Source: Thiohalomonadaceae bacterium
GTDB taxonomy: Bacteria; Pseudomonadota; Gammaproteobacteria; Thiohalomonadales; Thiohalomonadaceae
Assembly (NCBI GenBank): GCA_041562215.1
Contig: JBFEYJ010000001.1
Span: 747-64,746 of the forward strand
Direction of reading: 5' to 3'
Length of the DNA stretch: 64,000 nucleotides
Part shown: one piece after another, positions 12,462 to 64,000 of the stretch
Layout: every line of letters begins with the position of its first letter
Numbering within the stretch: the stretch's first letter is position 1
Program-made: the position numbers and the translations under genes
Notes under the pieces: model-generated
What the model was told of the DNA's origin: nothing
Databases searched by the model: none
Seen by the model: the letters and a program-made list of their open reading frames with translations, nothing else

Positions 12462-12926
12462 ATGAAAGGAATGAATGGATTAAATGAAATTAACAGGCCC
12501 ACGCATATTCCCTCTGCGCTGAATAAATACGTCAGGCAGAACATCAAGTCTATGATGCAGGGTGAATTTAATCGGTATGTTGCCGGATTTCAGGATTTGT
12601 TGATGGTCAGTTCACCCCTGGCAGGGCGCTTCCAAAGACACATCGCACGCAAAGAAAATACAAGCTCTTCTCGCCCATTGACTGGAGACTACGCATTCCC
12701 TGCTGTGCATGGCGGCTGCGAAAGCAATCATCATCCACAGATAGTTATGAATAGCGTGGAGCAGATATTTTGTTACTTCACCGTACTCTGCTCCCGCCCC
12801 TCGATACCGGTGATGCCGAGTGTGCCGGGATTACCGCCAACTGGTTTTACCGTGAGCAGCCAGGTACCGCGCGAGGCGTTCCAGTACATTGGACCGTGTC
12901 CATCGAGCTGGAGCTGTGCGCTATAA
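12462..12926 (+). CDS. questionable small ORF (hypothetical)
   Basis: A strong AGGAGG SD lies 5 nt before ATG 12462, in the 550-bp AT-rich gap. However, the last ~150 nt run antisense through the 3' end of the subtilase gene, and no family is recognisable. Confidence 0.25.
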   Translation: MKGMNGLNEINRPTHIPSALNKYVRQNIKSMMQGEFNRYVAGFQDLLMVSSPLAGRFQRHIARKENTSSSRPLTGDYAFPAVHGGCESNHHPQIVMNSVEQIFCYFTVLCSRPSIPVMPSVPGLPPTGFTVSSQVPREAFQYIGPCPSSWSCAL

Positions 12927-17517: not shown

Positions 17518-17530
17518 AGTTATGGGGCCA

Positions 17531-18787: not shown

Positions 18788-18819
18788 GGATCGTCTCCTG
18801 AGCTCGAGTCGGGTGGCCG

Positions 18820-20049: not shown

Positions 20050-20111
20050 GAGCGAACTCCTCCTCTTCAGACCCTGGCCGCCTGATGCGGCCAGGGCTTG
20101 GTTTTAATGGG

Positions 20112-45491: not shown

Positions 45492-45834
45492 CTTCGCCCA
45501 ATCTCTGCCCGGTAGAATAAAAGACCATATTAATTATGGGTATTACTAGGCTACAGGTCACGATAGCCGTTACCTGCAAGCAGTATAGACCACCGTGCAA
45601 GTGCCATCAGGCAAGGCAGGAGAGCAAGGAAAGAGTGGGATAGACGTTACGAAACCCGCTACGGTTGGCGTGACATTCGGGTATCAAACGGACGTCGGGC
45701 AACCGGAGAGGTAATGACAACGTGTCTTTAACATGCTTGTCCGAAAGGGAGATCGTGACAGAAAAAGACAGCGTTAGGAGTCAATAGAAAATAGCATGCG
45801 GGATCAAACCAACTTGCACCCTGGGCGGGCGTTA

Positions 45835-46914
45835 TCAAGCACGATCCTCGGGATCACAGTAGCGAGCCCGTATCGCATGGATCTCCGCAAGTGACGCTTC
45901 AAATTGTGTCACGACCGCCGGCTCAAAATGGGTACCGGCATGCTCACGGATATAACTCACTGCTTCATCCACCGGCCAGGGCCGCTTGTAAGGACGGCTG
46001 GAGGTGAGTGCATCAAAAACATCCGCTACCGCCACAATGCGACCGGATTGAGGGATATCTTCGCCCGTCAGACCGGCGGGGTAACCGCTACCATCCCATC
46101 TTTCATGGTGAGTTAAGGCAATGGTTCGCGCCAGCTTCAGTAACGCGGAGTCATCGCCTTCAAGCAATTCAGCACCAATGACGGTATGAGTCTTCATGAT
46201 TTCCCACTGCGCCGCATCCAGTTTACCTGGCTTGAGCAGAATATCATCCGCAATGCCGATCTTGCCGATATCATGCATCGGGCTGGCATTCAGCATCAGC
46301 TCACACTCCGCGTCACTCCAGCCCAGTTTGCGTGCTAAAAGCTCCGAGATCTGGCTCATACGCATAATGTGATAACCGGTTTCATTATCACGGTATTCCG
46401 CCGCCCGTCCCAGACGATGCACGATCTGAAGTCGAGTCTGCCGCAACTCATCGGTACGCTGACGCACCAGTTCATCCAGCACATCTTTCTGCTCATGTAC
46501 CATGAGATGTGCCATATGGGCATCGAGCAGGTTGCGCACGCGGGCCAGCAGCTCCAGGCGGTCAAAAGGCTTGCCGATAAAGTCCCGCGCCCCGGCGTTG
46601 AGTGCGCGCAGAAGATAGTCGCGTCCGTGTTGCGCTGTTAGCACCACCACCGGAGGAAGCAGCGGATCATTGAGCTCCCGCAATGCATCCAGCACGGCGA
46701 AACCGTCCATGTGCGGCATGTTGATATCGAGCAAAATGAGATCGGGACGCCGCTTGTGGTAATGCTCCAGCACCAACCGCGGATCCTGTACCAGCACCAG
46801 ATTGGTGTATCCCTGCGCGCCAAGCATCTTGTCCATAAGCTTAAGGTTGAACGGCTCATCATCGACGATGAGAATGTCAGCCTCTTCAGGATTAAGTCTC
46901 CACTGCTCACTCAT
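45835..46914 (-). CDS. response regulator with HD-GYP domain (RpfG-like c-di-GMP phosphodiesterase)
   Basis: Receiver (ILIVDDEPFNLKL...DLILLDINMPHMDG...GKPF) plus HD-GYP (HDIGKIGI...HHERWDGSGYP). Confidence 0.9.
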   Translation of the reverse strand: MSEQWRLNPEEADILIVDDEPFNLKLMDKMLGAQGYTNLVLVQDPRLVLEHYHKRRPDLILLDINMPHMDGFAVLDALRELNDPLLPPVVVLTAQHGRDYLLRALNAGARDFIGKPFDRLELLARVRNLLDAHMAHLMVHEQKDVLDELVRQRTDELRQTRLQIVHRLGRAAEYRDNETGYHIMRMSQISELLARKLGWSDAECELMLNASPMHDIGKIGIADDILLKPGKLDAAQWEIMKTHTVIGAELLEGDDSALLKLARTIALTHHERWDGSGYPAGLTGEDIPQSGRIVAVADVFDALTSSRPYKRPWPVDEAVSYIREHAGTHFEPAVVTQFEASLAEIHAIRARYCDPEDRA

Positions 46915-46942
46915 ACGCTAACCACCCGAATCATGAAAATTG

Positions 46943-49900
46943 TTACCCTTGTTCAAGCAACCCATCAAGCACAGAGAGAAAATCCGTCACATCCAGGGGC
47001 TTGGTCAGGTAATCGGTGAATCCCGCCGCCTTGCCGCGTTCGATATCCCTTGGCATGGCATTGGCGGTGATTGCAACAACAGGAATAGTCTTTAGCCGCT
47101 CATCCGAACTCATAATGTTTAGGATCTGATATCCATCCATACGCGGCATATTGATATCCAGCAAAATGAGATCAGGACGGTGAGCTGCAGCCATCTCCAG
47201 GCCGAGTTCAGGTTCATGAGCGGTGACCAAATTAACATACTTTCTTTTGGCCAAAATCTGGCTAACCAGTTTGAGATTAGCCGGGTTGTCCTCAATGTAC
47301 AATACCGTATGCGTCTTGCCGGAACCACTCTCGTCGTGATGATGAAGGGCACTGCTCTCCTCATCGTGGGCGCCGTTGAAAGCGATGGTTCCTCGGGGTA
47401 ATATCACCTGAAACCGGCTCCCCACACCGGGCTCACTCTCGATACCGATGGTACCGCCCATCATCTCCACCAGATTACGTGTGATGGAGAGCCCGATGCC
47501 GGTGCCTTCGATTTCGCTCCCTTCCGCATCGAGTCGATTGAACGGTTCAAACAGCTGTTCCTGCCGGTCTTCCGCAACCCCCCTGCCGGTATCCATGACC
47601 GTAAGTCGCAGTTCATCCTCATTGACCGCATCCACTTCCAGAATAACTTTGCCATTCTCACGGTTATATTTGATGGCATTCGAAAGCAAGTTAAGCAGTA
47701 CCTGTTTAAGGCGAGTCCGGTCGGCACGGACAATGTAGCCCGCAATATCCCCCTGGATTAACTGAACTCCATATTGCTGGGCAACGGGCTCAATCAGGGA
47801 AAAACACTCAGTAAACACCTGAGTAACATCGACAGGTTCAAGAGACAGGTCGATACGCCCCGACTCGATCTTGGCCAGATCCAGCACCTCGTTAATCAGA
47901 TCAAGCAAGTGGCGACCGGCCTTGATGATCTCCTGCACACTGTCCAGCTGATCCTCATCCAATGCCTCATCGAATTCAAGAATTTGTGCAAATCCAAGGA
48001 TCGCATTCATTGGTGTTCGTAGTTCATGACTCATGCTGGAGAGAAATGTCGACTTGGCCTGGCTGGCCCGCTCGGCGTCCTCCTTTGCCGCGGCCAGTTG
48101 CTGCTGGCGATGTTGCTCCTCTGTATGGTCGCTCATGATGTTGAACAGGTATTGCGGTGAGCCGTCGTCACCGGCGACGAAACCGACATTGGCATTAGTC
48201 ATCAGCTGTGTGCCGTCAGGCTTCAACACCGGCAAAAGGCCTTTCCATCCCTTGCCCTGGTTGATAGCGCCCATGATTTCATCCACCGCCCACGCCAGCG
48301 ACTCCTGCGGAAAAAACATAGTGAAGTGCTTGCCGACAATCTCCTCATGGCTATAGCCGTGAATAATGTCATGGGCCTTGTTGGAATAGAGCAGATGTCC
48401 TGTCGCATCGGTAACTCCGATCCCTTGCTCGGAACTCTCGAAGATCCGACGAAACAAGATCAAATCCTGTTCCGCCTGCTTAAGTTCAGTGATGTCCTGC
48501 ACGGTTCCGACAAGGCCGATCATCCTGCCGGTTTCATCATACTTGCTCGTGGCAAGTTCATGCACGTAACGCAGGGTGCCATCCGGCCGCACGATACGAT
48601 GCATCACATCCAGCCTTCCACTTTCCTCCGCCTGCTTCCGACTCTCCTCTACAAGCCCTAGGTCTGCCGGATGAATCGCCTGCCAAAACAACGCCACAGA
48701 GGGTTCAACGCTCGCCTTGTCCAGGCCGAAAATGTCGTAAATGATATCGGACCACTGCACCTCGCCGCTCACCAGATCCGCTTCCCAGTTGCCGATATGC
48801 GCCAGTTGCTGCGCCTCGAGCAATCGTCGGCGGCTATCCTCCAAGGCATTTTCCGACCTTTTCCGCTCGCTAATGTCCTGTACGATGGACCATATCCGCT
48901 TATTGCCAAACGGGTCCTCTACCAGGGAGCCGCTGAGCAGCACCGGCACCCGATGACCATCCTTGTGGATATACTCCTTCTCATAGGGGCCATAGCGTCC
49001 TGTGCTTGCCAATTTCGCCAGTTGCTCCTGCTCATTGGCGAAATATTTGTCCGGGGTCAGTTGCCAATAAGAGAGGAGACGATATTCCTCCTCGGAGTAA
49101 CCAATAGCGTCCAACAGCGCCTGATTCGCCTCGAGGAAGTTCCCCTCCATGTCGTTAAGCGCGATCCCCACCGGTGATAACTCGAAGAGATTTCGGAATT
49201 TCTGTTCGCTCTCGTGGCGGGAATCCTCGGCCATTCTGCGATCATGGATGTCCATGACCACGCCCAACATGTGCAGCGGATTACCCGCCGCATCACGCAC
49301 AACATCGCCTTTCTCCTGCACCCAGCGAACCTGGCCATCGGGCCAGACAATCCGATGCTCGATGTTGTACTCATCGCCTTTCTCAATACAATTGCCGACC
49401 GCCTTCACCACCAGGTTGCGGTCCTGGGGATGAACTGCATTGAGGAAATTCTCGTAAGTCGTTTCCAGATCCCCCGCCAGGTAACCGAACAGTGGTGCGA
49501 TGCGCTCGGACCAGAAGAGATCACCGGTCTGGATATTCCAGTCCCAGGTACCGATGTTGGCGAAAATCTGGCTGCGTCGCAGACGCTCGGCTGAGATATT
49601 CGCCTCCTGCTCCAACCGCTTAACATGGGTAATGTCAGTGCGGATGGAAACATACTGATAGGGTTTTCCAGCGGCATCCTTGAACGGTACGATGGTCGAC
49701 TCTACCCAGTAATTTTCGCCGCACTTGCTGCGATTACAGACATCCCCCCGCCAGACATTTCCATCGCTGATGGTCCGCCACATTACTTGATAAAATTCCG
49801 GGGAATGCGCGCCCGATTTAATGATACGATGGTTCTGACCAAGAAGCTCTTCCCGCCGATAACCACTGATGGCGCAAAACAGATCATTCACATAGATGAT

Positions 49901-51154
49901 TTTTCCCGTGACATCGGCAATGCTGACAATTGCGTGATGATCCAGCGCCAGATGCTCGCGTTCCTTCTCGTACAGGGCGCGATTGAGCGACAGCCTTGTC
50001 CGGCTCGCCTCACGCGATCGTCGGGCACGTGACAGCACGGCGCTGCAAAATTGCAGCGGCTCGACCGGTTGCACCAGCAAACCATCCCAGTCGGGGTTGT
50101 AGGCAAACAGCTCGTGCAAAGATTCGCTCCTGTCCGAGAGAAACAGGATGGGTAACGAGGCGTTCTCCTCATCTTCATGCAGCAGTGAGGCCAGCTCGGC
50201 GCCACCGACCTCCTGCATCGCCACCTCCAGCACCACCACTTCAGGCTGGAACTGACGCAGCGTATCAAGGACGGCAAGCGGGCTGGATTCGGTGCACACC
50301 TCCATCCCGGCGTTCTGCAACAACTCGGTATGGAAGGATAACCTGTTCAGGTCGTCATCGATCAACAGCACCCGATAAGACACCGGCTCCTCACGGACCG
50401 TGACCTGCTCAATAACCCGCAGCAGCCTGTCAGGGCTGACAGGTTTGACCAGACAGCGGCTGGCCCCGGCACGGTAAGCCGCAAGGCGCTTGCGGATATC
50501 ATCGTCCAGGGTAAGCAGCACCAATGGCGTATTACCGGAGGCTCCACTTCGCAAGGTTTCGATGGCCTCCATCATCACCGTATTGCCCTGAGCGAAGTGC
50601 ATATCCAGGATCACCACGGCAGGCGCCTGATCATTCGACATGACCCTCGTGACTGTTTCCGGCTCGGAAAAACGCTGCACGCTATAACCTGCCGCCTGCA
50701 GCAGCTCCATCAGCGGGTATGCCTGCTCCGGGTCATCCTCGATCAGGTAGACCAGCGAAGCCTGGCTTGGCGGAAAATATCCCACAGGTGGCATCAGCGT
50801 CGGTGCGGTGGTTGTCAGTGCCGATCGCACGGCCGCATCAAGCCTCACAAGCCCCTCCTCCAGCGCCTGAAGATCCACCTTTCCAGGCGGCAGGGCCTGT
50901 CTGTCGTCCATGGTGATGAAAGACAACGCCAGTGAACGCGCCGCCTCAGCGACCCCCGACAGGTCGAAGATCGCCGCGGAACCGACGATGCCATCCAGCA
51001 TGCGGTCGAGCTTTTCTCCCTCTTTCCCTAGCCTGCGGGACAAATCGGGATCGAGCAACAGATGCCTGAGCTCATCCAGCCTCATCGGCAGGTGGGCGAC
51101 AAATTCAGCACGCAAGCGCGCCAGTTCACTACTAATACACTCTTCCATCACCAT
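46943..51154 (-). CDS. 1403-aa cytoplasmic hybrid sensor kinase (HPt-like, 2 receiver-like, multiple PAS, HisKA-HATPase, receiver)
   Basis: H-box SHELRTPMNAILGF and ATPase boxes NLLSNAIKY, DTGRGV, GTGIGLSI. The C-terminal receiver has DLILLDINMPRMDG...TKP. At least four PAS/PAC blocks are present (e.g. ...WDWNIQTGDLFWSE..., ...IVQDISERKRSE...). No TM segment seen. Confidence 0.9.
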   Translation of the reverse strand: MVMEECISSELARLRAEFVAHLPMRLDELRHLLLDPDLSRRLGKEGEKLDRMLDGIVGSAAIFDLSGVAEAARSLALSFITMDDRQALPPGKVDLQALEEGLVRLDAAVRSALTTTAPTLMPPVGYFPPSQASLVYLIEDDPEQAYPLMELLQAAGYSVQRFSEPETVTRVMSNDQAPAVVILDMHFAQGNTVMMEAIETLRSGASGNTPLVLLTLDDDIRKRLAAYRAGASRCLVKPVSPDRLLRVIEQVTVREEPVSYRVLLIDDDLNRLSFHTELLQNAGMEVCTESSPLAVLDTLRQFQPEVVVLEVAMQEVGGAELASLLHEDEENASLPILFLSDRSESLHELFAYNPDWDGLLVQPVEPLQFCSAVLSRARRSREASRTRLSLNRALYEKEREHLALDHHAIVSIADVTGKIIYVNDLFCAISGYRREELLGQNHRIIKSGAHSPEFYQVMWRTISDGNVWRGDVCNRSKCGENYWVESTIVPFKDAAGKPYQYVSIRTDITHVKRLEQEANISAERLRRSQIFANIGTWDWNIQTGDLFWSERIAPLFGYLAGDLETTYENFLNAVHPQDRNLVVKAVGNCIEKGDEYNIEHRIVWPDGQVRWVQEKGDVVRDAAGNPLHMLGVVMDIHDRRMAEDSRHESEQKFRNLFELSPVGIALNDMEGNFLEANQALLDAIGYSEEEYRLLSYWQLTPDKYFANEQEQLAKLASTGRYGPYEKEYIHKDGHRVPVLLSGSLVEDPFGNKRIWSIVQDISERKRSENALEDSRRRLLEAQQLAHIGNWEADLVSGEVQWSDIIYDIFGLDKASVEPSVALFWQAIHPADLGLVEESRKQAEESGRLDVMHRIVRPDGTLRYVHELATSKYDETGRMIGLVGTVQDITELKQAEQDLILFRRIFESSEQGIGVTDATGHLLYSNKAHDIIHGYSHEEIVGKHFTMFFPQESLAWAVDEIMGAINQGKGWKGLLPVLKPDGTQLMTNANVGFVAGDDGSPQYLFNIMSDHTEEQHRQQQLAAAKEDAERASQAKSTFLSSMSHELRTPMNAILGFAQILEFDEALDEDQLDSVQEIIKAGRHLLDLINEVLDLAKIESGRIDLSLEPVDVTQVFTECFSLIEPVAQQYGVQLIQGDIAGYIVRADRTRLKQVLLNLLSNAIKYNRENGKVILEVDAVNEDELRLTVMDTGRGVAEDRQEQLFEPFNRLDAEGSEIEGTGIGLSITRNLVEMMGGTIGIESEPGVGSRFQVILPRGTIAFNGAHDEESSALHHHDESGSGKTHTVLYIEDNPANLKLVSQILAKRKYVNLVTAHEPELGLEMAAAHRPDLILLDINMPRMDGYQILNIMSSDERLKTIPVVAITANAMPRDIERGKAAGFTDYLTKPLDVTDFLSVLDGLLEQG

Positions 51155-52986: not shown

Positions 52987-53373
52987 TCAGCGCCCCTCTG
53001 ATGACTTATTGTTAACTGATGGAATTAGGTAAGGCTTAAACAAGTGGCGGTGGTTATGACATTGGATTTGCAGTAATTTCCAGCTTTTCGATGGACCTGA
53101 TAGGTTTCTTACCGTCTCTTTGTATTTGAAGATAGCCGGAGCGAGATCCAGTAACGGCACGATATGATCCATCAGCTTCTTACATGTCGACTCCATCAGT
53201 TCATCCACTCTGGTGCCCAACGATTTATCTTTACCGCAACTGATGCCAAGTTTCGAGTCACCTTTCTGCAAGGCATTGATCACCCTGGCGAAAAGGGGAG
53301 GGATTCTTCCGTTCCGGTCAATACTGGTAATCTCCAGATCCGCCCCTGGGGGGTGGCGCTGCAATAACATCAT
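52987..53373 (-). CDS. hypothetical protein (possibly a gene remnant) at the island boundary
   Basis: 128-aa ORF in the GC transition zone. No recognisable motif or convincing SD. Confidence 0.3.
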   Translation of the reverse strand: MMLLQRHPPGADLEITSIDRNGRIPPLFARVINALQKGDSKLGISCGKDKSLGTRVDELMESTCKKLMDHIVPLLDLAPAIFKYKETVRNLSGPSKSWKLLQIQCHNHRHLFKPYLIPSVNNKSSEGR

Positions 53374-55371
53374 CTACCTCGTCATGACAGGCACTAGCTC
53401 AGTATCACCACTCATCCCGTCAATGGCGAAGCAAGCAAAGCACCTCGTTCTGATGGCTCTGTTTTCATCACCTCGGAAATGGTGCTGATCTGAGGTGGAC
53501 CGCATCAAGCCTTTCCCGAGAGATTTGTTCACCCGAGACCATGCACCTAAGTGACATTAAGCCACTCGAACTTCATGCCTATGAATTAACGTCATTGCCG
53601 GTCCCTTGGTCAGTGTGTTCTCTGTATATCATGCAATCAAAGAGCTGTCCCTTGGTACGATGCACCATGGAGATGTTTGAGATCATGAAGTGCATGTTAC
53701 TGGAGCTTACCTGAAGAAAGTTTTTCCGAAGTCCCATGGCCAGCATCGCTGTATAGCTTAGGGAAGTATCGAATTGTTTGCCTCCACATAAGCAGGCACG
53801 AGAACAAGGAGATACCCAAGAGTAAGGTTTGTTTTTCTATCAGCCTTATGCCCTACAAACTTTAATAAGGGCAGTTCAATAGATTCAGCTTCACATGTCT
53901 CCTACAGAAATCCTTTATCCTTGGTATCCGTGAAAACGCTGTTGCCGTGGAAATACGGTGTCATTATAATATTTTGTCAAATACAAAACATTTCCTCCCA
54001 TGGACTCGCCGTGCTTAACGACTTTCCTGTAAGAACACAGGGCACAGGATTCAAGTCAAAGCAGTGGATATTGGTAGCCAGAGCCGGCACATAGAACACT
54101 TTGAAAACAAAGGGAATTTATAAACATTCATCTTATATATCTTTTCAAACAACCAAGAACCGCTTCCGAGATACCGGCTGAAAAGGAAATACGTTAGATT
54201 GTAGGCAAGAGCTTAAAGATTTTATTCTGAAGAGACACTCAATGCATTGGGTAAGGCGGTAATGTTCTCTACTTTCAATCATGACACAGTACTACCATCC
54301 CTGGCTGTAGTTTTTATGAAGGTATTACCTGTTTTCGTCCAGAGTACATACCCTGAGTTTATTATTACTTTAAAGCCCCGATTAAACTCAGTGTGAAATA
54401 CAAGACTAAAAAATGAATTTAGCGAAGGCGTTCTTCTCAGTTATTTTAGCTGCTTGGTCGCGAAAATCTTCGACCATCCCACCTATCCTTCCCTGTCTAT
54501 CGGGTAGCACCCACACACAGAGTTGAGTGCATAATCATGCAAGAAGAACCTCCTTCTGTATATTACCAGTTGGACAAGAAACCAACCAACTCACTTGCGC
54601 ACCACAACTACCGTCAATGGAGTTACTTATTCTATTTTCTTACCTATGTCATTAATCGATTATTCATGGTAACAAGGTACCGTAACCGAGAAGCAAACAC
54701 GATAAGCGGCACAACTATAGTGACCCATGATAATTTTAACAAAACCATAAAGACCGAAAATACTTTATGGGTGTTTCGTCATAAAAAGAAAGCCAATCAT
54801 AAACCTGACACACTATGCCCAATAACAATTAGAAAAAACAATGATAATGGCAGGCACCAAAACACTCGGTTCTATAAAGAAAACCCTACCCAAAGACAAT
54901 CACTCTTCCCGACATTTAGTGCCTCCTCAAAAGCACCCCTTTCGATTGGACATTAGTGAGCTTGAAACCAAACCTTTAACGTGGCTCACACCACTTTTCA
55001 AAGAAGACATTTAGTAACACCGGCTTCAGTGAGACCTACTGGCCTTAATAAATCATAGCCCGACGTTAAAGGTGCGGCCACACGCAGGCACTAACGACTT
55101 AAAAAATCATAAAAAAACACACCATCATCATGGACGAGATGGGATTCATCCGACCACAACCATGACATTCAATCCAAAACCTGACAAACAAACCCACTCA
55201 CAACCACTGAACTTTCGGCGGTCATACATCTGAGCGACACCTGAAAGGCAAGAAACGCATTAATAAAATGCACCACACAAATCAATCAACACACTCTGTC
55301 AAACCCGGCCCCTCCCACCTGCATCCTTTTAATCGAAAGGCCGGAGAGGCCTACAACTGGAGCAACATAAA

Positions 55372-58300
55372 ATGAAAAAAAAATACACCAAAAAAGACAA
55401 AGAACCGTTACCTTTATTTGCCTCTAAAGAATACCGGTTGATGGAAAAAATCGGTGAGGGTGGTTTTGGACAAGTATACCGAGCAATTCACCTCAACACC
55501 AAACAACAGGTCGCTATAAAAATATTAAAGATCCCACCTAAACTGGATAGTAACAAAAAGCGTCGCTATATTGATCGATTCGAGCGAGAATCCCTATTAG
55601 TTAGTCGCTTACAGCATCCGAATATCGTTCGTTTACTCGACAAAGGTCAGCTTGAGAGCGGACTGATTTACACTGTATTTGAATTTATTGACGGAGAATC
55701 GTTAAAGGACAGATTGTTGAAGTCAGGCGCACAAAGCCCACTTGCTACCAAAGAGATTATGGCACAGGTACTTGACGGGCTTTCCTATGCACATGAGAAA
55801 GGCGTCATCCACAGGGACATTAAGCCGGCTAACATCATGCTGGTAACAACACAAAACAAAACTTACGTAAAGATACTCGACTTCGGAATAGGCGCATTGA
55901 TCAATGAGACATATCATCCAGACTATAAAAGCATCACACTCACCCAGGAGACCCTTGGCACACCATCCTACTGCTCTCCTGAGCAATTACGCGGGGAGCC
56001 CCCGACTCCGAAATCCGATCTGTATGTGTGGGGGCTGTTATTTATCGAATGCATAACAGGTAGCCCTGCCATCTATGGCTCCAATCTTGCATCTGTATTT
56101 CATAAACAGCTCAACCAGGAAAACGTCCCGATACCTGCGTTAATTGCAGGCCATCCTATTACCGGACTACTTAGGCGCGTTTTAGAAAAAAAGAGTACTG
56201 AACGTGCTGGGTGTGCTTCAAGCATTTACAAGGAACTTATTCAACTTAACTTTTCAGCTGTGGCACCCATACCGGCATCACCTTTATCAGAAAAGGACAA
56301 TTGGCCATCAAGCTCCAATGAATGCATGACTCAAACACTCCTGAACGATCACGACGTTACCTCCAAAGGTGTAACAGAGCGTAAACAGCTATCAGTTTTA
56401 TGCGTACGTGTAAATGTAAAGTCAACAGCAGAGACTTTTGATCATGAAATTATAGAGGCACTACATCGAGATCAAAAATCCCAATGTTGCGATATTGCCA
56501 TTGAATATAGCGCCATCCATGTTGGCAGCTTGGGTGATTCATTGTTGTTTTATTTCGGGTACCCACTAGTAAGCGATAGTGACGCCAGGCTTTGCGCTAG
56601 AACTGCCCTTGATATTCTAAGCAGGATAAAGAAACGTAACTCACTACTGAACAATACACAAGGTCTCGTGATCGAAGTATGCAGCGGTATACATACGGGC
56701 ATTATGACCTGCTATAGCGATATTATTCCAGATGGTGAAACAGCCAACATTGCCATAGAGCTTGCACGTAGCGCGCTGCCAAGTCAGATATTGTGCTCTG
56801 AAGCAAGCAAACTGATTCTTGATACTTACATATCATTCGAGTACTCAGAGTCTCGGCAAATCGGAATTGACTCGCGCGAGACAATAGTATATTTGCTTAC
56901 AGGTGAACGCCATGTGGAGGCATTTGGTTTCTTGAGAGCGAATCGGCACCATGACTGCTTTATCGGTCGAAAGGATGAGCTCGAACGCTTAACCAGTTTA
57001 TTGAAACAAAAAAGAATTAAGAGAGTTGTACGCAAACGCCAAAACTGCAGATTTTTCCATGTACATGGTGAGGCAGGAATAGGTAAGTCACGTCTGGTTT
57101 TTGAACTAAGAGACCGAGCAAAGAATTATAAACATATCGTTATTCAATGCCTCCCCGAGCATAAGCATCACGCACTATTCCCAATCTTAAACATTATCAG
57201 ATACCAATACTCACTTGATGCACATTCACCGGCTACCGCAGTGTCTCAACTTCGCAATGCTCTGGTGACTGGGGGGAACACCAGAGAACAGGATGCAATT
57301 GCTCTACTGTGTCTATGGCTTAATTTACCCATCCCGGATAATGTTCCACCTATAGCGATCTCACCTGACAAACAGAAAGAACGGCTACATGAAGCATTAG
57401 GCACGCTATTAACAAGAGTCGAGAATTCTTCGCCTGAATTTATCACTCTCTATATTTTTGAAGATATGCACTGGGCTGACCCTGCCAGCATAGAATTTAT
57501 CGCCTACCTATTATCAAACAGGCGCTTCCAGGAAGAAGGTCACATATTTATCAGCACATCAAGACAACGTCTGCCGGCAACACTGAACACTCTTGATATA
57601 GATAGCATTGTATTGCACAAACTCAACCCTGATATGGTAAAGGAATTCATTATCACCATGTTTGATAATGAGGTGCTTGAGGAAAGAGTTATTTCACTGA
57701 TCACTGAACGTACAGACGGCATCCCTCTATTCATCGAAGAATTTATCGCCATGCTAAAGCAGAAGCAAATTGTTCAACGCTTAAACGGAATCATCGACTT
57801 CTCAAAGCCTGAAAAAATCAATGAACTACCCAACAACCTTAGAGACTCTTTGCAGCAGAACCTGGATGAATTAGTGTATGCGAAAGAAACCGCTCAAATG
57901 GCGGCGACCATAGGACGAGAGTTTACCTACGACTTACTTGTCGCCTGCAGTCATCGCAGTGAAGAACAGGTGCAATCTGACTTGAATGAACTTCTTGAAT
58001 CGGAGTTGATATATATTCAGCGCAAGGTGGATTCTGATAGTTACATTTACAAGCACGCATTGATTAGGGATGCTGCTTACGAGAGCATGCCGCTATTGAG
58101 AAGAAAAGATGCACACAGACAAATCGCCGTAGCATTGGAGAGTGGGCATGTGGCGAACATGTCCCATAACCCAGCCGTAATGGCAATGCATTGGAGCAAA
58201 GCTGGTGACTGTGAAAAGGCTGTCGAGTATGGTATCAAAGCGGCCAATATGGCACTCAGACGTTCATCGGCCGGTGAAGCTATTAAGCATGGACTTGAGG

Positions 58301-59361
58301 CACAGTCTTGGATTGAAAAAATTGAAGAAAAAAAACAGCTGAACAACAGACTCGAGATATATGGTGTATTGACATCGGCCTATATGGAAACCAAAGGCTG
58401 GGGATCTAAAGAGGTGCTTTTTTACTCTGAAGAGTCACTTAAGTTGTTAAAATCAGAAAAACGACATGATGCTCTTGTTTCACACCTTTGGTGGAAAGTG
58501 CTTAACGGGATCGTAGGTGGCAGGCGTGAAGACCTGGCGAATATTTCCGCACAAATGAATACACTACTTGCTCATGTCAACAAAATAAATAAGTCCGCCA
58601 TTAAGTGTGCAGAAGGTTTTTATCACTTTACCGAAGGTGACCGGATAGCCTGTATCGAAGCGTTAAGTTCATCAATTAATTACTATGATCCTAAGGCAGA
58701 AATAACTCATCAGCAACTTTACGGGTTTGATGTCGGCGTCTTTGCAAAAGCGACTATAGCACGCGCATACGCTGACACCAACCAAATAGAAAAAGCGGTT
58801 AAATATGCGGAGGACGCTGTCACAGAAGCAAAGATTCACGAACACATTCCATCTATCGGTATATCGTTAATGTATTACGGTTTAGTACATCAACAGTACC
58901 AGAACAGGAAACTGGTAAAAGAATCATCACAAGAGCTTCTTGATATTTCAGAGAAGCATAACCTACCAATATACAAGGGATTTGCGCAAATGCTTTATGG
59001 ATGGGCTACCAGAGACATCACACAAGCCGAGATAGTACTCAGTAATTTGACGACAGCCGGATCACTACACGGACTGGGACAGTTTCAATCATTTTACGCT
59101 GAACTCTACGCAGAGAATGGCGACTACCAGGAGGCTGCAAGAAAGATCGATGAATGCTTAGCCTTAGATCAGGCTATCAATGAACCGAATTACCGAGCCT
59201 ACCTATTATTTAAAAGAGCTCAATATTTACTTTGTAGTGGTTACTACAATCGGAAAGCCGGATTAAAAGACCTCGATGACGCATATGCGTTAGCCAAACT
59301 TCAGGGAGTGAGTTACATTATGCAAAAGATAAAAGAGCTGAGAAAGAACCTCAAAAACTAA
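55372..59361 (+). CDS. Ser/Thr protein kinase fused to degenerate class III cyclase-like module, AAA/STAND NTPase and TPR-like repeats
   Basis: Kinase motifs: GEGGFGQVYRA, VAIK, HRDIKPANIM, DFG, GTPSYCSPEQ. The cyclase-homology-like block (SVLCVRVNV...GDSLLFYFGYP...SGIHTGIM) lacks the first metal Asp. Walker A HGEAGIGKS and Walker B-like LYIFEDMHWAD are present, followed by about 550 aa of helical repeats. Confidence 0.85.
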   Translation: MKKKYTKKDKEPLPLFASKEYRLMEKIGEGGFGQVYRAIHLNTKQQVAIKILKIPPKLDSNKKRRYIDRFERESLLVSRLQHPNIVRLLDKGQLESGLIYTVFEFIDGESLKDRLLKSGAQSPLATKEIMAQVLDGLSYAHEKGVIHRDIKPANIMLVTTQNKTYVKILDFGIGALINETYHPDYKSITLTQETLGTPSYCSPEQLRGEPPTPKSDLYVWGLLFIECITGSPAIYGSNLASVFHKQLNQENVPIPALIAGHPITGLLRRVLEKKSTERAGCASSIYKELIQLNFSAVAPIPASPLSEKDNWPSSSNECMTQTLLNDHDVTSKGVTERKQLSVLCVRVNVKSTAETFDHEIIEALHRDQKSQCCDIAIEYSAIHVGSLGDSLLFYFGYPLVSDSDARLCARTALDILSRIKKRNSLLNNTQGLVIEVCSGIHTGIMTCYSDIIPDGETANIAIELARSALPSQILCSEASKLILDTYISFEYSESRQIGIDSRETIVYLLTGERHVEAFGFLRANRHHDCFIGRKDELERLTSLLKQKRIKRVVRKRQNCRFFHVHGEAGIGKSRLVFELRDRAKNYKHIVIQCLPEHKHHALFPILNIIRYQYSLDAHSPATAVSQLRNALVTGGNTREQDAIALLCLWLNLPIPDNVPPIAISPDKQKERLHEALGTLLTRVENSSPEFITLYIFEDMHWADPASIEFIAYLLSNRRFQEEGHIFISTSRQRLPATLNTLDIDSIVLHKLNPDMVKEFIITMFDNEVLEERVISLITERTDGIPLFIEEFIAMLKQKQIVQRLNGIIDFSKPEKINELPNNLRDSLQQNLDELVYAKETAQMAATIGREFTYDLLVACSHRSEEQVQSDLNELLESELIYIQRKVDSDSYIYKHALIRDAAYESMPLLRRKDAHRQIAVALESGHVANMSHNPAVMAMHWSKAGDCEKAVEYGIKAANMALRRSSAGEAIKHGLEAQSWIEKIEEKKQLNNRLEIYGVLTSAYMETKGWGSKEVLFYSEESLKLLKSEKRHDALVSHLWWKVLNGIVGGRREDLANISAQMNTLLAHVNKINKSAIKCAEGFYHFTEGDRIACIEALSSSINYYDPKAEITHQQLYGFDVGVFAKATIARAYADTNQIEKAVKYAEDAVTEAKIHEHIPSIGISLMYYGLVHQQYQNRKLVKESSQELLDISEKHNLPIYKGFAQMLYGWATRDITQAEIVLSNLTTAGSLHGLGQFQSFYAELYAENGDYQEAARKIDECLALDQAINEPNYRAYLLFKRAQYLLCSGYYNRKAGLKDLDDAYALAKLQGVSYIMQKIKELRKNLKN

Positions 59362-59387
59362 AAGCAACTTATATGGAGATAAAAAAA

Positions 59388-60293
59388 ATGAATAACACTC
59401 TGGTAAGTAGTGGTAACACGTTAATGGACCTTAGGTTAATGATTCTAAGGACAATTTCACAAGTTTGGCAAAAACCGGACTTGAGGGAAGTAATTGAATC
59501 AAAAACACCGATCCAACTCTATCAATATTTTGCACAAGAATTTAATTACCATGCAGCATTTGAAAACTTTGGTATAAAATTCATGAAACCCACTGCAGAA
59601 TGGAACTTTTATGGCGACAATCAGTGGACAAAGCCGGAAGATGAAACCATCACAATCACCCTCCCACGCAACGAACAAAGCAGCACTTTTAACGCAACTG
59701 ACAAATTATTTGAATATTATAGCTACTTCCCGACTTTCTTCGGCTTAATGAGAAAGACTGGCGGACGAATCGAAACACATGACAGTGCGATTAAATCGTC
59801 TTCTGCAAGTCTGGTTCAAGGAACAAGCTCGATGTCCGGCACTGACTTCCATGGAAATGATTATGATCTTGGCGTGTCTGAGGATCCTTTCCTTGGATTT
59901 GGTGGAGTCTTACTAAAGATAATTGCCGCTTCATGGGAAAACCCTGAACTGACAAAAATGATTGACTATAATTACCAAAAAAATAATAACCATTCATCCA
60001 ATGAAACCTATTACGCAAATATAAAATCAATGCTCAATAAGTACTATGATTTTGAATTCCCTTGGGCATTTAACCTAAAATTTGTTTTTCCCTCCGATGA
60101 GGAATCATTCTGGTTCGAGAAAGATGGTGAATGGACTTGGAGAAAAGCCGATAACAATGGTGGACAATTAATCAGAAACACCGTATCGCTAGAGATCCCA
60201 AATGCACCGACAACAGGCGAGACGAGCGAAACAGCCATGGCATTGGCAAGATATAACATGATAGGTCCAGCATACCCATTTACCTGTTCATAG
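59388..60293 (+). CDS. tandem NHLP-like (nitrile-hydratase-leader-like) protein with single penultimate Cys; putative YcaO substrate
   Basis: GGAGAT SD precedes ATG 59388 (ORF-track start 59373). It has two internally similar halves: ILRTISQVWQKPDLREVI...ETITITLPRN and LLKIIAASWENPELTKMI...NTVSLEIPNAP. These echo the NHLP pattern (KAWxDPxF...vLP.kP). The only Cys in the protein is in the C-terminal ...GPAYPFTCS. Confidence 0.6.
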   Translation: MNNTLVSSGNTLMDLRLMILRTISQVWQKPDLREVIESKTPIQLYQYFAQEFNYHAAFENFGIKFMKPTAEWNFYGDNQWTKPEDETITITLPRNEQSSTFNATDKLFEYYSYFPTFFGLMRKTGGRIETHDSAIKSSSASLVQGTSSMSGTDFHGNDYDLGVSEDPFLGFGGVLLKIIAASWENPELTKMIDYNYQKNNNHSSNETYYANIKSMLNKYYDFEFPWAFNLKFVFPSDEESFWFEKDGEWTWRKADNNGGQLIRNTVSLEIPNAPTTGETSETAMALARYNMIGPAYPFTCS

Positions 60294-60300
60294 CAGTTTT

Positions 60301-62484
60301 ATGAAGGCGATTAATTTCTCGCTACAGTGGAACCCCCGCTTTTCAATATACAATCTTGATTGCGGAGGCGCCATTTTATTGGGCGATAGTGAACAGTTCC
60401 AATTAACCAAAAAAGACTTTTATGAAGTTAATGCTGTAATCACCAGAAAGGGAAATCTGTATGATTATGTCTTTGAGACAGAAGACCTATCAGAGCAAGT
60501 TTCGCGAATTGAGCGAATTGATACATTGGTATCAACCAACATTATCACTCGCAATCAAGAGGATGATCTAACTTATTTAATCCCGGACTTTTTATCTCAA
60601 ATTGAGGAAATTTGTTGCGGATCGATAAATATATATTTTCTAAGCACCTTAGTAGATAAGTCATTTATTACAGAGTGGCTATTGGGCATTGACTCACTTG
60701 ACGACATGACAATCGTCATTGTCGATGATTATTTAGACCCAAGGTTACTGAGAATAAGCGCCTATCTGGCAAAGAAAAAGACAAACTGGATACTCATCAA
60801 ACCAGTCGGCTTGACGGCTATGGTGGGACCCTACTTCAACAGTAATCGCCCTGACGCACCATGTTACCACTGCCTCCATACAAGGCTAGTCCAAAACAAC
60901 CCCGTTAGGGAGTGGTGTCGAAGACACACTAAGAGTGATAGCCAGTTGGCAGTACCTGTTATGGTTAGTCATGTGTCCATTAGACACGCACTTGAAAATT
61001 TTACAAGGTGTTATCTTCAACATTTACATGATAGACCCGATAGAGACAACATCATATACACCATTAATCCTGATGTCGCAGATACACAAGTGGGTAAATT
61101 TCACAATGTTATAAAAAGACCACAGTGCTCCGGCTGTGGTGATTCTGATTTATTTAAAAAAATGAATGATATCCCGATACATTTACTTGATTGTATAATA
61201 CATGATGACACAGATGGTGGTTATCGGAACATTGCCAGAGAGGTAACCTTAGACAACAATGACAAACTGATCAGTCCTGTTAGTGGAATCATTAGCGAAC
61301 TTAAGAACATTACTGATGATGAAAATCCGGACGAAATGGCAATCTACCAAGCAGCTTATTATCAAACCACCTACAATGAAAAAACAATTACGGCCGATAC
61401 CTTCGTCCAACTATCACTTGGAAAGGGGATATCAAAAAAGCAGGCCATGTCCAGCGCTATTTGCGAGGCGATTGAGCGGCAGGCAGCACAGTTTAACGGC
61501 GAGGAATCATTTATACTTTCCACTCCTAAAAAGCTAGATAATAGAGCATTCCAGCCTCAGTCACTTGCACAGTTCAGTCAAGCACAGTACAAAACATTCG
61601 CTCATTTCGAAGCGACAAGCCTGGATAATCCTCAGTGGGTTTGCGAATACAGTGAAAATACACCTATTCACTGGGTGCGAGGGTGGTCGTTAACTAAGCA
61701 GGAACATGTTTACTTTCCTGCTGCTTTCTGTTTCGCCAACACACCTTTTACTGATCACAAATACTCCCTCTATACACACAATGGCAATGCTGCAGGCAAT
61801 ACACAAGAAGAAGCGATTCTTCAGGGAGCCCTTGAAGTTATCGAAAGGGATGCGGTTGCAATATGGTGGTACAACCAAATCCCGCGACCCGAGATAGCAC
61901 TGGATGTGGTACCACAAGATACACTTAAAATAATATCTAAAACCCTGTCCGCAGATTGGGATTACTGGTTGCTGGATATATCACACGATATTAGTGTGGT
62001 CAGCTGCGTTGCAGTAGGTCGCCATAAAGAATCTGAGAAGTTTGTTTTAGGCTTTGGCAGCCACATGGAGGTATTGATTGCCTGTCAACGGGCACTAACA
62101 GAGATGTTTCAACTAATCACTATCAAAGATAAAGTTACTGGCCCCTTTGACTTCAATAATATCCCGCCCCATCCGTTCATGTTCCCGCGACGACATTCAG
62201 CTACAAAAAAAGCTACTGACTTCAATACAATTGAGACAAACAACATTCGCGAGGGCATTCTATACCTAATGAAAACATTAACAAATTGTGGCCTCGAACT
62301 TTGTGTCGTAAGTTATTCCAGAGCGGATATTTCCCTAAAGACGCTAAAAGTCATCATTCCTGGTTTATCCCACTTCTGGCCTCAGCTGGCGAACGAGAGA
62401 CTATATGATGTCCCGGTCCGTTTAGGATGGCTAAGCCAGCGATTAAAAGAAGAAGAGCTCAATCCCTTAGAGCTGTATTTATAA
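60301..62484 (+). CDS. fused E1-like docking / YcaO cyclodehydratase (TOMM-type)
   Basis: The N-terminal half has the cyclodehydratase-docking pattern (IVIVDDYLDPRLL...WILIKPVGLTAMVGPYFNSNRPDAPCYHCLHTRL...CSGCGD). The C-terminal half has YcaO signatures (LSLGKGISKKQAMSSAICEAIERQAAQF; HNGNAAGNTQEEAILQGALEVIERDAVAIWWYNQ). The ATG lies 7 nt after the upstream stop. Confidence 0.85.
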   Translation: MKAINFSLQWNPRFSIYNLDCGGAILLGDSEQFQLTKKDFYEVNAVITRKGNLYDYVFETEDLSEQVSRIERIDTLVSTNIITRNQEDDLTYLIPDFLSQIEEICCGSINIYFLSTLVDKSFITEWLLGIDSLDDMTIVIVDDYLDPRLLRISAYLAKKKTNWILIKPVGLTAMVGPYFNSNRPDAPCYHCLHTRLVQNNPVREWCRRHTKSDSQLAVPVMVSHVSIRHALENFTRCYLQHLHDRPDRDNIIYTINPDVADTQVGKFHNVIKRPQCSGCGDSDLFKKMNDIPIHLLDCIIHDDTDGGYRNIAREVTLDNNDKLISPVSGIISELKNITDDENPDEMAIYQAAYYQTTYNEKTITADTFVQLSLGKGISKKQAMSSAICEAIERQAAQFNGEESFILSTPKKLDNRAFQPQSLAQFSQAQYKTFAHFEATSLDNPQWVCEYSENTPIHWVRGWSLTKQEHVYFPAAFCFANTPFTDHKYSLYTHNGNAAGNTQEEAILQGALEVIERDAVAIWWYNQIPRPEIALDVVPQDTLKIISKTLSADWDYWLLDISHDISVVSCVAVGRHKESEKFVLGFGSHMEVLIACQRALTEMFQLITIKDKVTGPFDFNNIPPHPFMFPRRHSATKKATDFNTIETNNIREGILYLMKTLTNCGLELCVVSYSRADISLKTLKVIIPGLSHFWPQLANERLYDVPVRLGWLSQRLKEEELNPLELYL

Positions 62485-62521
62485 CACTTTCTCCACCAAA
62501 GGTGGATCAAAGGTTTACGTA

Positions 62522-63556
62522 GTGAATAAAAACGAAAAAAAACAAGTGCTTGTCTGTGGCACACAGTATGGTCAAGTCTATCTTCGTGCTATCGATGAAC
62601 TCCAGGACTTTGAAGTATCCGCATTACTTGCACGAGGGAGTGAGCGATCTATTAGGTTATCCGAGCAACGTGCCATCAGCTTATATAAAAATGTTGATCA
62701 GATCGATGAGCATGTTGATCTTGCTTGTGTTGCGATTGGTGGGGATGCCGGTACAGATGTTGCGGCTTCCTTATTGAAACGAGGAGTGCCGGTATTGCTG
62801 GAGCATCCTGTTTCAATTGACAAAGTGAGCCAACTTTTACATTTGGCGAATAAGCACGAAACTTTCTGCCATGTCAACAGCCACTTCCCGGAAATCAAAC
62901 CAATCAATTCTTTTATAGAACTCTGTAAAAAACTTAATAGCCGAAGCAAACCCCGAGTTATTAATGCTGCATGTAACAGCAGGACACTCTATTCCATGTT
63001 GGATATTTTACAACGTAGCCTTGGCGATATAAACCTGGAACACTTTACATCATCCCCAATGGGAACGCATGATCTTTATAAAAATTGTACATTTTCAGTG
63101 AATGAAACTCCATGCGCCATGGTCTACCAAAGGTGGCTTGGCCGCATTGATGATAGCAAGGATTCACCTTTAGGGCATGAAATAACCGTCACCTATCCCG
63201 AGGGCGTGCTTCGTCTTGCTGGCACCTTTGGCCCCTGCCAGTGGTTCCCCTTAGTTGCCGGCGGACTTCCAATCCATGCCCCTATAGTCAGTGACTCTGC
63301 TGATGACAATGGGACCGTTACCAGTATGGATATTATTCAATGGCGGATAGCGGCAAACAAAGTCGCCATAAACAATCTTCATCAATCATACATAAACCGT
63401 GATCTATCTGACAGCTATCAAAGTTGCGATTGGTTAGAACATTTATGCAGGCTTTGGAGTCACCTCTACACTCGACTCGGTGTTGTGTCGATTGAAGCTA
63501 CTCAAGAAATGGTTTCGTCACCCTATATAAACATTGACGCCATCCGGAAGGGTTAA
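62522..63556 (+). CDS. thiazolinyl-imide-reductase-like (PchG/Irp3/YbtU-type, Gfo/Idh/MocA fold) oxidoreductase
   Basis: GTG start. The N-terminus, VLVCGTQYGQVYLRAI...ALLARGSERSIRLSEQ...DLACVAIGG...GTDVAASLLKRGVPVLLEHPV, matches what I recall of the PchG/YbtU family pattern (VCGT.fG..Yl...LaRGS.RS...aCV...G..LA..LL.rG..VL.EHP). Confidence 0.65.
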   Translation: MNKNEKKQVLVCGTQYGQVYLRAIDELQDFEVSALLARGSERSIRLSEQRAISLYKNVDQIDEHVDLACVAIGGDAGTDVAASLLKRGVPVLLEHPVSIDKVSQLLHLANKHETFCHVNSHFPEIKPINSFIELCKKLNSRSKPRVINAACNSRTLYSMLDILQRSLGDINLEHFTSSPMGTHDLYKNCTFSVNETPCAMVYQRWLGRIDDSKDSPLGHEITVTYPEGVLRLAGTFGPCQWFPLVAGGLPIHAPIVSDSADDNGTVTSMDIIQWRIAANKVAINNLHQSYINRDLSDSYQSCDWLEHLCRLWSHLYTRLGVVSIEATQEMVSSPYINIDAIRKG

Positions 63557-63593
63557 CAAACGATTAATACATCGACCAGCACATGGGGTAGCT

Positions 63594-64000
63594 ATGGCAA
63601 CCATCTATAACGTAAATACAGGGATACAAATAAACTTAACAGCACATCATAGTTTTGGCCGAAATCCTCATGGTAACAATACTATCCTGGATGATGCATA
63701 TGCCTCACGCATTCATGCGGTAGTATTTTGGGATGGTGGGAATTGGAAAATAATGAACAAGAGCATTAACGGAACCTATCTCAATGGCACCAAGATATCC
63801 GATTCGCAGAGCAGCCTATTAGCAAAAGATGACAAGCTACATTTCGGCAGTATGCAGAGTGACACTTGGTGCATAATGGAAATTGAGGCGCCTACAGCCA
63901 CACTCATTCCGGTAACGCCATCTCTTTCGGAGATCATACTCATTGATATGGTTGCGCTCCCCTCTGAGGAGTCACCGCAAGTAACATTATATCAATCAGG
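63594..64000 (+). CDS. FHA-domain protein (3' end runs off the right edge)
   Basis: Absent from the ORF track because it has no stop in the window. ATG 63594 opens MATIYNVNTGIQINLTAHHSFGRNPHGNNTILDDAYASRIHAVVFWDGGNWKIMNKSINGTYLNGTKI..., which carries the FHA signature G-R...S-R-x-H...N-G-T-x-x-N-G. The frame is open to base 64000. Confidence 0.75.
   Translation, partial: MATIYNVNTGIQINLTAHHSFGRNPHGNNTILDDAYASRIHAVVFWDGGNWKIMNKSINGTYLNGTKISDSQSSLLAKDDKLHFGSMQSDTWCIMEIEAPTATLIPVTPSLSEIILIDMVALPSEESPQVTLYQS

Follow-up and report, generated by a model that had tools for sequence, protein, structure and literature searches.

A YcaO cassette of the NHLP-Burk family that combines an invariant C-terminal cysteine tail with a thiazoline reductase homologue, a kinase and an FHA-domain protein

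What might a YcaO cyclodehydratase make when its presumed substrate is a 306-aa protein with a single cysteine and the enzyme encoded next to it resembles a siderophore reductase? The question is raised by a cassette at the end of the window, the 64,000-nucleotide stretch of contig JBFEYJ010000001.1 from a Thiohalomonadaceae bacterium that was analysed here as a whole. Its five genes, labeled K, A, B, C and F in their order on the forward strand, are read as a branch of the NHLP-Burk family, whose presumed precursors resemble nitrile hydratase leader peptides (NHLP). This branch would have recruited a thiazoline reductase of the type used by nonribosomal peptide synthetases (NRPS), which would convert a thiazoline to a thiazolidine on the tail of a folded protein. 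The analysis places the chance that this reading is correct at about even. The features on which the argument depends are the following.

55372..59361, + strand: K, a 1329-aa fusion of a Ser/Thr kinase, a cyclase-homology domain, an AAA_16 STAND NTPase and a TPR region
59373..60293, + strand: A, a 306-aa fused two-domain NHLP-Burk protein (TIGR03795 / PF27793 RNP_Burkhold), the presumed substrate
60240..60290, + strand: tail block of A, ALARYNMIGPAYPFTCS, residues 290-306, the invariant C-terminal block
60285-60287, + strand: TGT codon of Cys305, the presumed modification site in A
60301..62484, + strand: B, a 727-aa fused E1-like / YcaO cyclodehydratase
62522..63556, + strand: C, a 344-aa homologue of the Irp3/PchG-like NAD(P)H thiazolinyl imine reductases
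63594..64000, + strand: F, the first ~135 codons of a 315-aa FHA-domain protein, a gene interrupted by the end of the window

The genes are separated by 11 nt (K to A), 7 nt (A to B), 37 nt (B to C) and 37 nt (C to F). A preliminary description of this DNA had seen three co-directional genes with gaps of 7 and 37 nt, and had taken them to encode a substrate made of two NHLP-like halves with its sole cysteine in the penultimate position, a fused E1-like/YcaO enzyme and a protein resembling thiazolinyl imide reductases. These three genes and their assignments are borne out by the results below. The cassette is nevertheless one of five genes rather than three, because K, 11 nt upstream, and F, 37 nt downstream, are family-wide partners of A and B. 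Contig L001 carries four complete cassette proteins that are 99.5-100% identical to those of the window, and it supplies the full F gene (315 aa; PF00498 FHA, 52.8 bits). The genes downstream of F on L001 are unrelated and lie on the opposite strand; those at 12904-14651 encode a small lipoprotein-like open reading frame (ORF), a phage-tail-collar-domain protein and a RhiA-family protein. As the preliminary description had held for the window, no SagB-type dehydrogenase, protease or exporter is found past the window end on L001, nor does one recur in the flanks of 10 related loci.

Protein A matches TIGR03795 in two stretches with 84.8 bits (cutoff 41), which upholds its suggested membership in the BMA_0021-type family, and its homologues bear the precomputed PF27793 RNP_Burkhold domain. 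The two halves of A align to each other (BLASTP E = 2e-4). A Cys-free FPTFFG motif closes the first half, and the only cysteine of the protein is residue 305 of 306, within the C-terminus GPAYPFTCS. The arrangement of the NHLP-Burk family, two domains with a cysteine at the end of the second only, is thus present in A in fused form. A homologue search returned 38 matches, down to 26% identity, all 38 of which end ALA[RKN]YNxxGPx[YF]PF[TS]CS. Column conservation averages 0.93 across the final 17 residues, compared with 0.17-0.67 in the remainder, and A has no other conserved hydroxyl residue than Thr304 (T or S) in the homologue alignment. A profile search of 1.84 billion representative proteins extends the family to 278 members. 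P[FYL][TS]C followed by 0-8 residues forms the C-terminus in 163 of the 170 family representatives examined, and the residues most often found after the tail cysteine are S (61), G (13), P (12), none (7) and CA (7). The family invariant is therefore ...YNxxGPxYPF(T/S)C, from which the final Ser is excluded; the expectation that the C-terminal cysteine is conserved holds for the cysteine itself, but the serine after it varies across the family.

In the AlphaFold2 model of A (pLDDT 79.6, pTM 0.78) both halves are folded, residues 130-170 form a disordered linker rich in Ser and Thr, and the last helix, at residues 284-296, is followed by a coil tail at 297-306. An alignment of 34 homologues of A has 33 invariant columns, which are spread over the predicted folded body, and this body is predicted to be compact and globular. 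A Foldseek search of the model against the PDB gave nothing below E = 2.7, with the nitrile hydratase alpha subunit appearing only at E = 7; because there is no PDB fold match, the 'NHase-like' label of A draws on sequence motif 1 only. The sequence of A has neither a signal peptide nor a Gly-Gly motif, and it lacks the Cys/Ser/Thr-rich hypervariable core, leader cleavage site and dedicated export of the substrate of a canonical thiazole/oxazole-modified microcin (TOMM). The C-terminal tryptic peptide of A, which contains the tail, is YNMIGPAYPFTCS. No other ORF of the PFTC type was found in a search of the window.

Protein B is identified as a cyclodehydratase by its matches to PF02624 (248 bits) and TIGR03882 (68.3 bits, cutoff 36.9). 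The solved structures nearest to it are LynD (4v1t, E 2e-95), TruD and MusD, with E values ranging from 2e-95 to 2e-88. In the alignment with LynD, B retains the two CxxC pairs of its E1-like domain together with the motifs CEAIER and EVIERD in its YcaO domain; the N-terminal ~130 residues of B do not align. The C-terminus of B (window 62461-62481; compared with P0039-P0073) resembles those of the other YcaO proteins of the reductase-bearing clade, all of which end LN[P/x]xxLYL, and the more distant relatives have NPIPxF[FL]-like ends. This clade-specific C-terminus may be linked to the unusual substrate.

Protein C matches TIGR01761 with 192.8 bits, a narrow pass over the cutoff of 188.8, and also matches PF01408 and the Irp3-like C-terminal domain PF21390 (44.5 bits, cutoff 27). 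The Irp3/YbtU structure 4gmf aligns to residues 4-242 of C with E 1.3e-27. The GxxYG, GSxxS and EHP motifs, the last of which contains His101 of Irp3, are invariant in 10 cassette reductases and Irp3. His101 and Tyr128 of Irp3 are its proposed proton donors. At residues ~119-123 of C the sequence NSHF looks as if the putative proton-donor position had been swapped to the neighbouring residue. In Irp3, hydride transfer occurs first and is followed by protonation by a general acid (review). Annotated relatives of C in a plasmid collection share at most 34% identity with it, and the two that were inspected both lie within salicylate-synthase/NRPS clusters for thiazoline siderophores. No NRPS gene occurs in any of the 12 loci of the reductase-bearing clade, so that C is not part of an NRPS assembly line there. 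Reduction of a thiazoline C=N bond is the putative activity of C.

These homologies and the invariant tail suggest the following scheme. A would fold into a two-domain body with a flexible tail of ~9 residues, ...PAYPFTCS, as in the predicted fold. B would dock on the NHLP-like body and use ATP to cyclodehydrate Cys305 onto the carbonyl of Thr304, which would yield a thiazoline, as homology and the invariant T/S-C pair would have it. Thr304 may cyclise as well, to a methyloxazoline. The strict T or S at position 304 would be explained if this residue also formed a (methyl)oxazoline, giving a tandem bis-heterocycle such as those on which Irp3 and PchG act in siderophores. With NADPH, C would then reduce the thiazoline C=N bond to a thiazolidine, as its homology indicates, and the cassette has no SagB-type dehydrogenase that could make a thiazole instead. 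Speculative outcomes are a pyochelin-like metal-binding unit or a masked peptide aldehyde, the latter being conceivable because a 2-substituted thiazolidine can ring-open.

The next question is whether this set of genes recurs elsewhere. A scan for A in 185,579 species genomes, in which pattern matches only were counted, located nine loci, in Cellvibrio, Teredinibacter, two Pseudoalteromonas and the metagenome-assembled genomes of a Cellvibrionaceae, a Pseudomonadota, a Roseivirga, a Roseivirgaceae and a Flavobacteriaceae member; ~35 related loci were compared overall. Carriers of the cassette include Pseudoalteromonas luteoviolacea, P. umbrosa and Thalassocella blandensis. With L001, L002 and L014 added, the order K-A-B-C is kept in every locus that covers it, and the reductase is present in 11 of 11 covered loci of the window's clade, which spans marine Gammaproteobacteria and Bacteroidota. 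F follows C in most loci of the clade and precedes K in two loci of the Roseivirga group (L007 and L011); none was seen near the two Pseudoalteromonas cassettes. In Pseudoalteromonas luteoviolacea (L006, 6703-8790) an extra YcaO-like ORF lies between K and A, and A ends ...YPFSCS. Tandem pairs of full-length fused precursor paralogues occur at some loci (L004 9872-12082, L011 8031-11104, L028 8874-10843). In L019-L021, L024, L026 and Burkholderia the precursor halves are separate genes, and the PFTC tail is found on the second half only.

The flanks of the clade's loci were surveyed for additional components. The 68 ORFs from 11 loci matched 113 Pfam families, none of them in more than two ORFs, and included no nitroreductase/SagB gene and no recurrent ABC, C39 or HlyD gene. 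A separate test for a SagB-type FMN (flavin mononucleotide) dehydrogenase found no nitroreductase-fold gene in the window, L001, L002 or the 68 flanking ORFs. The flanks consist of ordinary housekeeping genes, for example those for the lipopolysaccharide core at L002. At L014, three PatG-like genes (Peptidase_S8 + PatG_D + PatG_C; 16396-20168) stand 1.7 kb downstream of the cassette and are followed by RebB (R-body) genes; the PatG-like genes could be a linked protease/macrocyclase or a coincidence. The recurring gene order and the lack of recurrent flank families imply that the five genes form a self-contained, horizontally mobile unit. In the preferred reading this module was acquired horizontally.

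The census bears directly on whether A is the precursor of a conventional ribosomally synthesised peptide with post-translational modifications (RiPP). In such a pathway the NHLP-like domains would be a long leader, as in proteusins, and an unlinked protease would free a short tail peptide, which housekeeping systems would export as a bacteriocin, metallophore or diffusible signal. PQQ (pyrroloquinoline quinone) and mycofactocin offer precedents for cleaved products with a constant core, and the thiazoline-thiazolidine unit serves as a metal ligand in pyochelin and yersiniabactin (review). Haft et al. 2010 (PMC2887384) defined the family as putative TOMM precursors, its NCBIfam name is 'TOMM bacteriocin', and the nearest characterised relatives of B work on leader-bearing peptides. 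Candidate proteases lie within a few kb of the cassette at two loci, in the form of the PatG-like subtilisin genes of L014 and an S8 peptidase at L013. Yet the flanks of the 11 loci show no recurrent protease, exporter or immunity gene, and Haft et al. 2010 (PMC2887384) likewise found no transporter for the family. The core is invariant over two phyla, the opposite of the hypervariable cores of antibiotic RiPPs, and the 33 invariant positions of A are distributed across a confidently folded body that bears no signal peptide. A conventional RiPP is accordingly regarded as unlikely. The preferred reading instead places the action of the product within the cell, where it would be a modified protein or else a small moiety that stays constant, and most likely not a variable secreted bacteriocin. 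An intracellular product is favoured because the tail is invariant across phyla and no protease, exporter or immunity gene is linked.

What the kinase and the FHA protein contribute is the next point. K scores 975.4 bits against TIGR03903, the 'TOMM system kinase/cyclase fusion protein' (cutoff 705.75). Its domains are Pkinase (172.6 bits), AAA_16 (63.2 bits), a TPR region and a Guanylate_cyc match that stays under the cutoff at 19.2 bits, and the VAIK, HRD, DFG and Walker A GEAGIGKS motifs are readable in its sequence. Residues ~337-355 of K (window 56380-56440), the expected site of the first metal-binding Asp of the cyclase-homology domain, read LSVLCVRVNVKS. Compared with the metal-binding motif of class III cyclases, this segment suggests that the domain is a catalytically dead pseudo-cyclase. 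K lies directly upstream of A in every locus with both genes except L006; the two genes are 11 nt apart in the window and in L001, and 3-28 nt apart in four further measured loci. Homologues of F occur in most related loci, those of Burkholderia among them. The C-terminal ~125 aa of F are well conserved (HHYLLLxLARQRL...HINIQIxRFRKQ...IERRxGELRF; L001 12400-12713), and beyond the FHA domain no further family was found in a Pfam scan (E <= 10) or a profile-vs-PDB search. An hhalign comparison of this domain with hand-entered PhoB/OmpR sequences gave a weak match over 17 columns (P = 0.003, probability 9.8%). The match falls at the putative recognition helix, and the domain may be a new DNA-binding winged helix of the OmpR type.

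The constancy of K and F allows an alternative in which the cassette is primarily a phospho-signalling module. K would phosphorylate A at Thr/Ser304 and the FHA protein would read the phosphothreonine, while the YcaO enzyme and the reductase would tune or lock the tail, making the heterocycle a regulatory switch and not a warhead. TPR domains commonly bind C-terminal peptides and FHA domains prefer phosphothreonine. Thr/Ser304, located beside Cys305, is the sole conserved hydroxyl outside the linker. The core of K, A, B and F is present in every clade examined and the tailoring enzymes vary, K is directly upstream of A at short distances apart from L006, its kinase and Walker motifs are intact and it has a TPR region, and the conserved C-terminal domain that F carries beside its bona fide FHA domain has a putative recognition helix with a weak alignment to PhoB. 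Against this, A is only a putative substrate of the kinase, some members with Ser at the 304 position still carry F (L013, ...PFSC), no F gene was seen near the Pseudoalteromonas cassettes, and the winged-helix match of F is weak, with no Pfam or PDB sequence match. Phospho-signalling as the primary function is therefore judged improbable. For the thiazolidine reading preferred here, K and F are proposed to be a phospho-signalling pair that may sense or control modified A, as their conserved linkage would suggest.

The composition of the window raises the further possibility of a genomic island with a defensive role. One feature is relevant here.

53000..64000, no strand: low-GC segment of ~0.40-0.45 GC that holds the cassette; the adjoining host DNA is at ~0.55-0.61 (composition profile)

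The GC content drops near 53 kb, from ~0.55-0.61 to ~0.40-0.45, and the interval from 53.4 to 55.37 kb is nearly free of ORFs, with a single 139-aa ORF (54537-54956) that has no family match. No tRNA, integrase or Rfam feature was found at this boundary, and scans of the window for promoters and terminators returned fewer sites than in shuffled controls. On the host side, the translations of the genes at 43812-51154 read as a secretion ATPase of the GspE/PilB type, a response regulator whose output domain is HD-GYP-like, and a PAS-rich hybrid histidine kinase of 1403 aa. An island for defence against phage or stress, with the STAND kinase as sensor and A, B and C as effectors, would agree with the position of the cassette in a low-GC segment of a high-GC genome, with the STAND-like AAA_16 and TPR regions of K and with the phage-tail-collar-domain gene downstream on L001. 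In a scan of the cassette against PADLOC-DB v2, however, the matches are limited to K's generic kinase domain (PD-T4-6 and mad6 models), A, B, C and F give none, and the flanks hold housekeeping genes with no recurrent defence genes. The defence reading was rejected on these grounds and is considered very improbable.

Is the reductase, then, a general property of the family? Loci outside the window's clade have other enzymes, as follows.

Burkholderia L033 and L035: F-K-A1-A2(...LFTCC)-B, without an additional enzyme
Variovorax L034 and several metagenomic loci: K-A(...YPFTC)-LCM-type carboxyl methyltransferase-B-F
L012, L028/29 and L030/31: Amidohydro_2 gene present
L012: PhyH and a methyltransferase in addition
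L013: second YcaO and an asparagine synthase; A ends ...PFSC; F present
L032: unassigned 420-aa gene

An Irp3-like reductase is found in none of L012, L013, L028-L035 or the methyltransferase-bearing metagenomic loci. The suggestion of a BMA_0021-type cassette with a reductase is correct as to the family, and has to be narrowed as to the enzyme, which is confined to one clade and missing from the Burkholderia loci. A coupling of the reductase to the terminal Ser was also considered, as all 11 reductase loci end ...CS, and was rejected: the tail of P0156 is ...YPFTCS, but at its locus (L028/L029) there is an amidohydrolase and the reductase is missing. The P0156 locus implies that the reductase is an accessory of one clade. 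The family-wide core is K + A + B + F, and the finishing enzyme varies by clade. The LCM methyltransferase, the Amidohydro_2 protein and the second YcaO could plausibly all act on a heterocycle derived from the C-terminal cysteine, which would make the tail the business end of A; in the sister clades, the carboxylate or the follower residues of that heterocycle would be the target of the methyltransferase and the amidohydrolase. Expression of a family member has been recorded in B. thailandensis, in which BTH_I0516 and its neighbour BTH_I0515 were detected as proteins and were up in stationary phase (2025 proteome study).

Several observations weigh against a thiazolidine formed on the tail of a folded protein. 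Every chemical step of the scheme is proposed from homology, and the role of K and F from their linkage. B scores 212.5 bits against TIGR03604, the model for the SagD-type YcaO of a canonical TOMM cluster, ~7 below the cutoff of 219.25. Its C-terminus is LNPxxLYL, and not the PxPxP of azoline-forming YcaOs. C passes TIGR01761 by 4 bits only, with an alignment that covers residues 5-246 of 344, and the position of Irp3 Tyr128 is a Phe in all 10 cassette reductases (NSHF vs NTFY), with an invariant His before it. The disordered Ser/Thr-rich linker of A and its helix-tail junction are possible protease sites, PatG-like proteases occur near the cassette at L014, and unlinked proteases or exporters are possible elsewhere. 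Most of the family works without the reductase, which is accordingly dispensable for the core function.

A fuller version of the scheme joins chemistry and signalling. A would be a folded intracellular protein, not a bacteriocin precursor. Its PF(T/S)C tail, rebuilt by the YcaO enzyme, would be converted to an (oxazolinyl-)thiazolidine by the recruited NRPS-type reductase, and the resulting state would be read or set by the STAND kinase, through its TPR region, and by the FHA protein. Taken with all of its parts this version is unlikely. What becomes of A, and what K and F do, are the weakest points of the preferred scheme as a whole. If true, it would represent the first ribosomal thiazolidine, the first azoline reduction on a protein and a previously unrecognised signalling or cofactor system based on RiPP chemistry. 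Confirmation of the reductive step would add azoline-to-thiazolidine reduction to ribosomal post-translational chemistry and would be a clear example of a ribosomal pathway that has taken over an NRPS tailoring enzyme. A single Cys is available in the substrate, and three genes should be enough for the proposed chemistry. Predicted in 2010, the NHLP-Burk 'two-chain TOMM' family has remained an orphan, and public annotation still calls it a bacteriocin. The comparison recasts it as a core of kinase, FHA protein, precursor and YcaO enzyme, with an invariant ...YPF(T/S)C tail on a predicted folded protein and a clade-specific finishing enzyme (reductase, carboxyl methyltransferase or amidohydrolase).

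In published work, NHLP-Burk was defined by Haft, Basu & Mitchell 2010 (PMC2887384), whose text describes tandem or fused precursors, a C-terminal Cys or Cys-Cys, a large kinase and no transporter, and contains no reductase nor, in the sections covered here, an FHA protein. Cox et al. (2015) merely restated that account, and reviews from 2022 describe azoline reduction for NRPS pathways only. A literature search, with most subscription journals outside it, found nothing on a YcaO protein together with a thiazolinyl imide/imine reductase (Irp3, PchG), no ribosomal thiazolidine and no thiazolidine in connection with a RiPP or cyclodehydratase, and nothing on a YcaO protein with an FHA protein and a kinase or on the TIGR accessions of the family. 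The earlier statement that azoline reduction has no known characterisation in ribosomal products agrees with this search, and such a characterisation may exist. The cassette belongs to a known, bioinformatically defined family, within which the reductase-bearing ...FTCS clade and the family-wide kinase/FHA core appear to be undescribed.

Known systems resemble the cassette in different parts. PQQ and mycofactocin are constant-core RiPPs, and the McrA thioglycine and ribosomal protein S12 are protein-level YcaO targets; what they share with the cassette is an invariant modified motif in place of a variable antibiotic core, and they include precedents for YcaO action on or with full-size proteins. 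Those systems differ in that they employ radical SAM chemistry or thioamidation, with dedicated peptidases for PQQ and mycofactocin, and none is linked to a kinase/FHA pair. In bottromycin biosynthesis a stand-alone YcaO turns a Cys close to the C-terminus into a thiazoline, the follower residues are then taken off by an amidohydrolase, and carboxyl and O-methylation come afterwards. The parallels in the sister clades are the accessory Amidohydro_2 protein and the LCM methyltransferase. Bottromycin, in turn, has a short precursor whose thiazoline undergoes oxidative decarboxylation to a thiazole; it is exported as an antibiotic and is made without a kinase, FHA protein or reductase.

C shares the Rossmann and Irp3-like C-terminal domains, the NADPH motifs and the EHP histidine with Irp3/YbtU of yersiniabactin and PchG of pyochelin biosynthesis, at an identity of only ~30% and with the Phe at the Tyr128 position following the invariant His. 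Those enzymes reduce a thiazoline C=N to a thiazolidine on NRPS intermediates tethered to carrier proteins, whereas the partner of C is a ribosomal YcaO system. B shares the E1-like and YcaO domains, the Zn-Cys4 site and the ATP/Mg motifs with LynD, TruD, PatD and MusD, and heterocyclases of the LynD type form thiazolines from Cys in ribosomal peptides during cyanobactin biosynthesis. The substrate here is instead a ~300-aa protein with a predicted two-domain fold and a single target at its extreme C-terminus, and the PatA/PatG proteases of the cyanobactin systems are absent, except near L014. With the NHLP-Burk system of Burkholderia, Delftia and Acidovorax the cassette shares the precursor family, the TIGR03882 cyclodehydratase and the TIGR03903 kinase, all above curated cutoffs and encoded by adjacent genes, and the FHA gene occurs in the Burkholderia loci as well. 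There the precursor is encoded by two small genes (...LFTCC) and no reductase is present, whereas in the clade of the window the precursor is fused and ends ...YPFTCS, and an Irp3-like reductase is always present.

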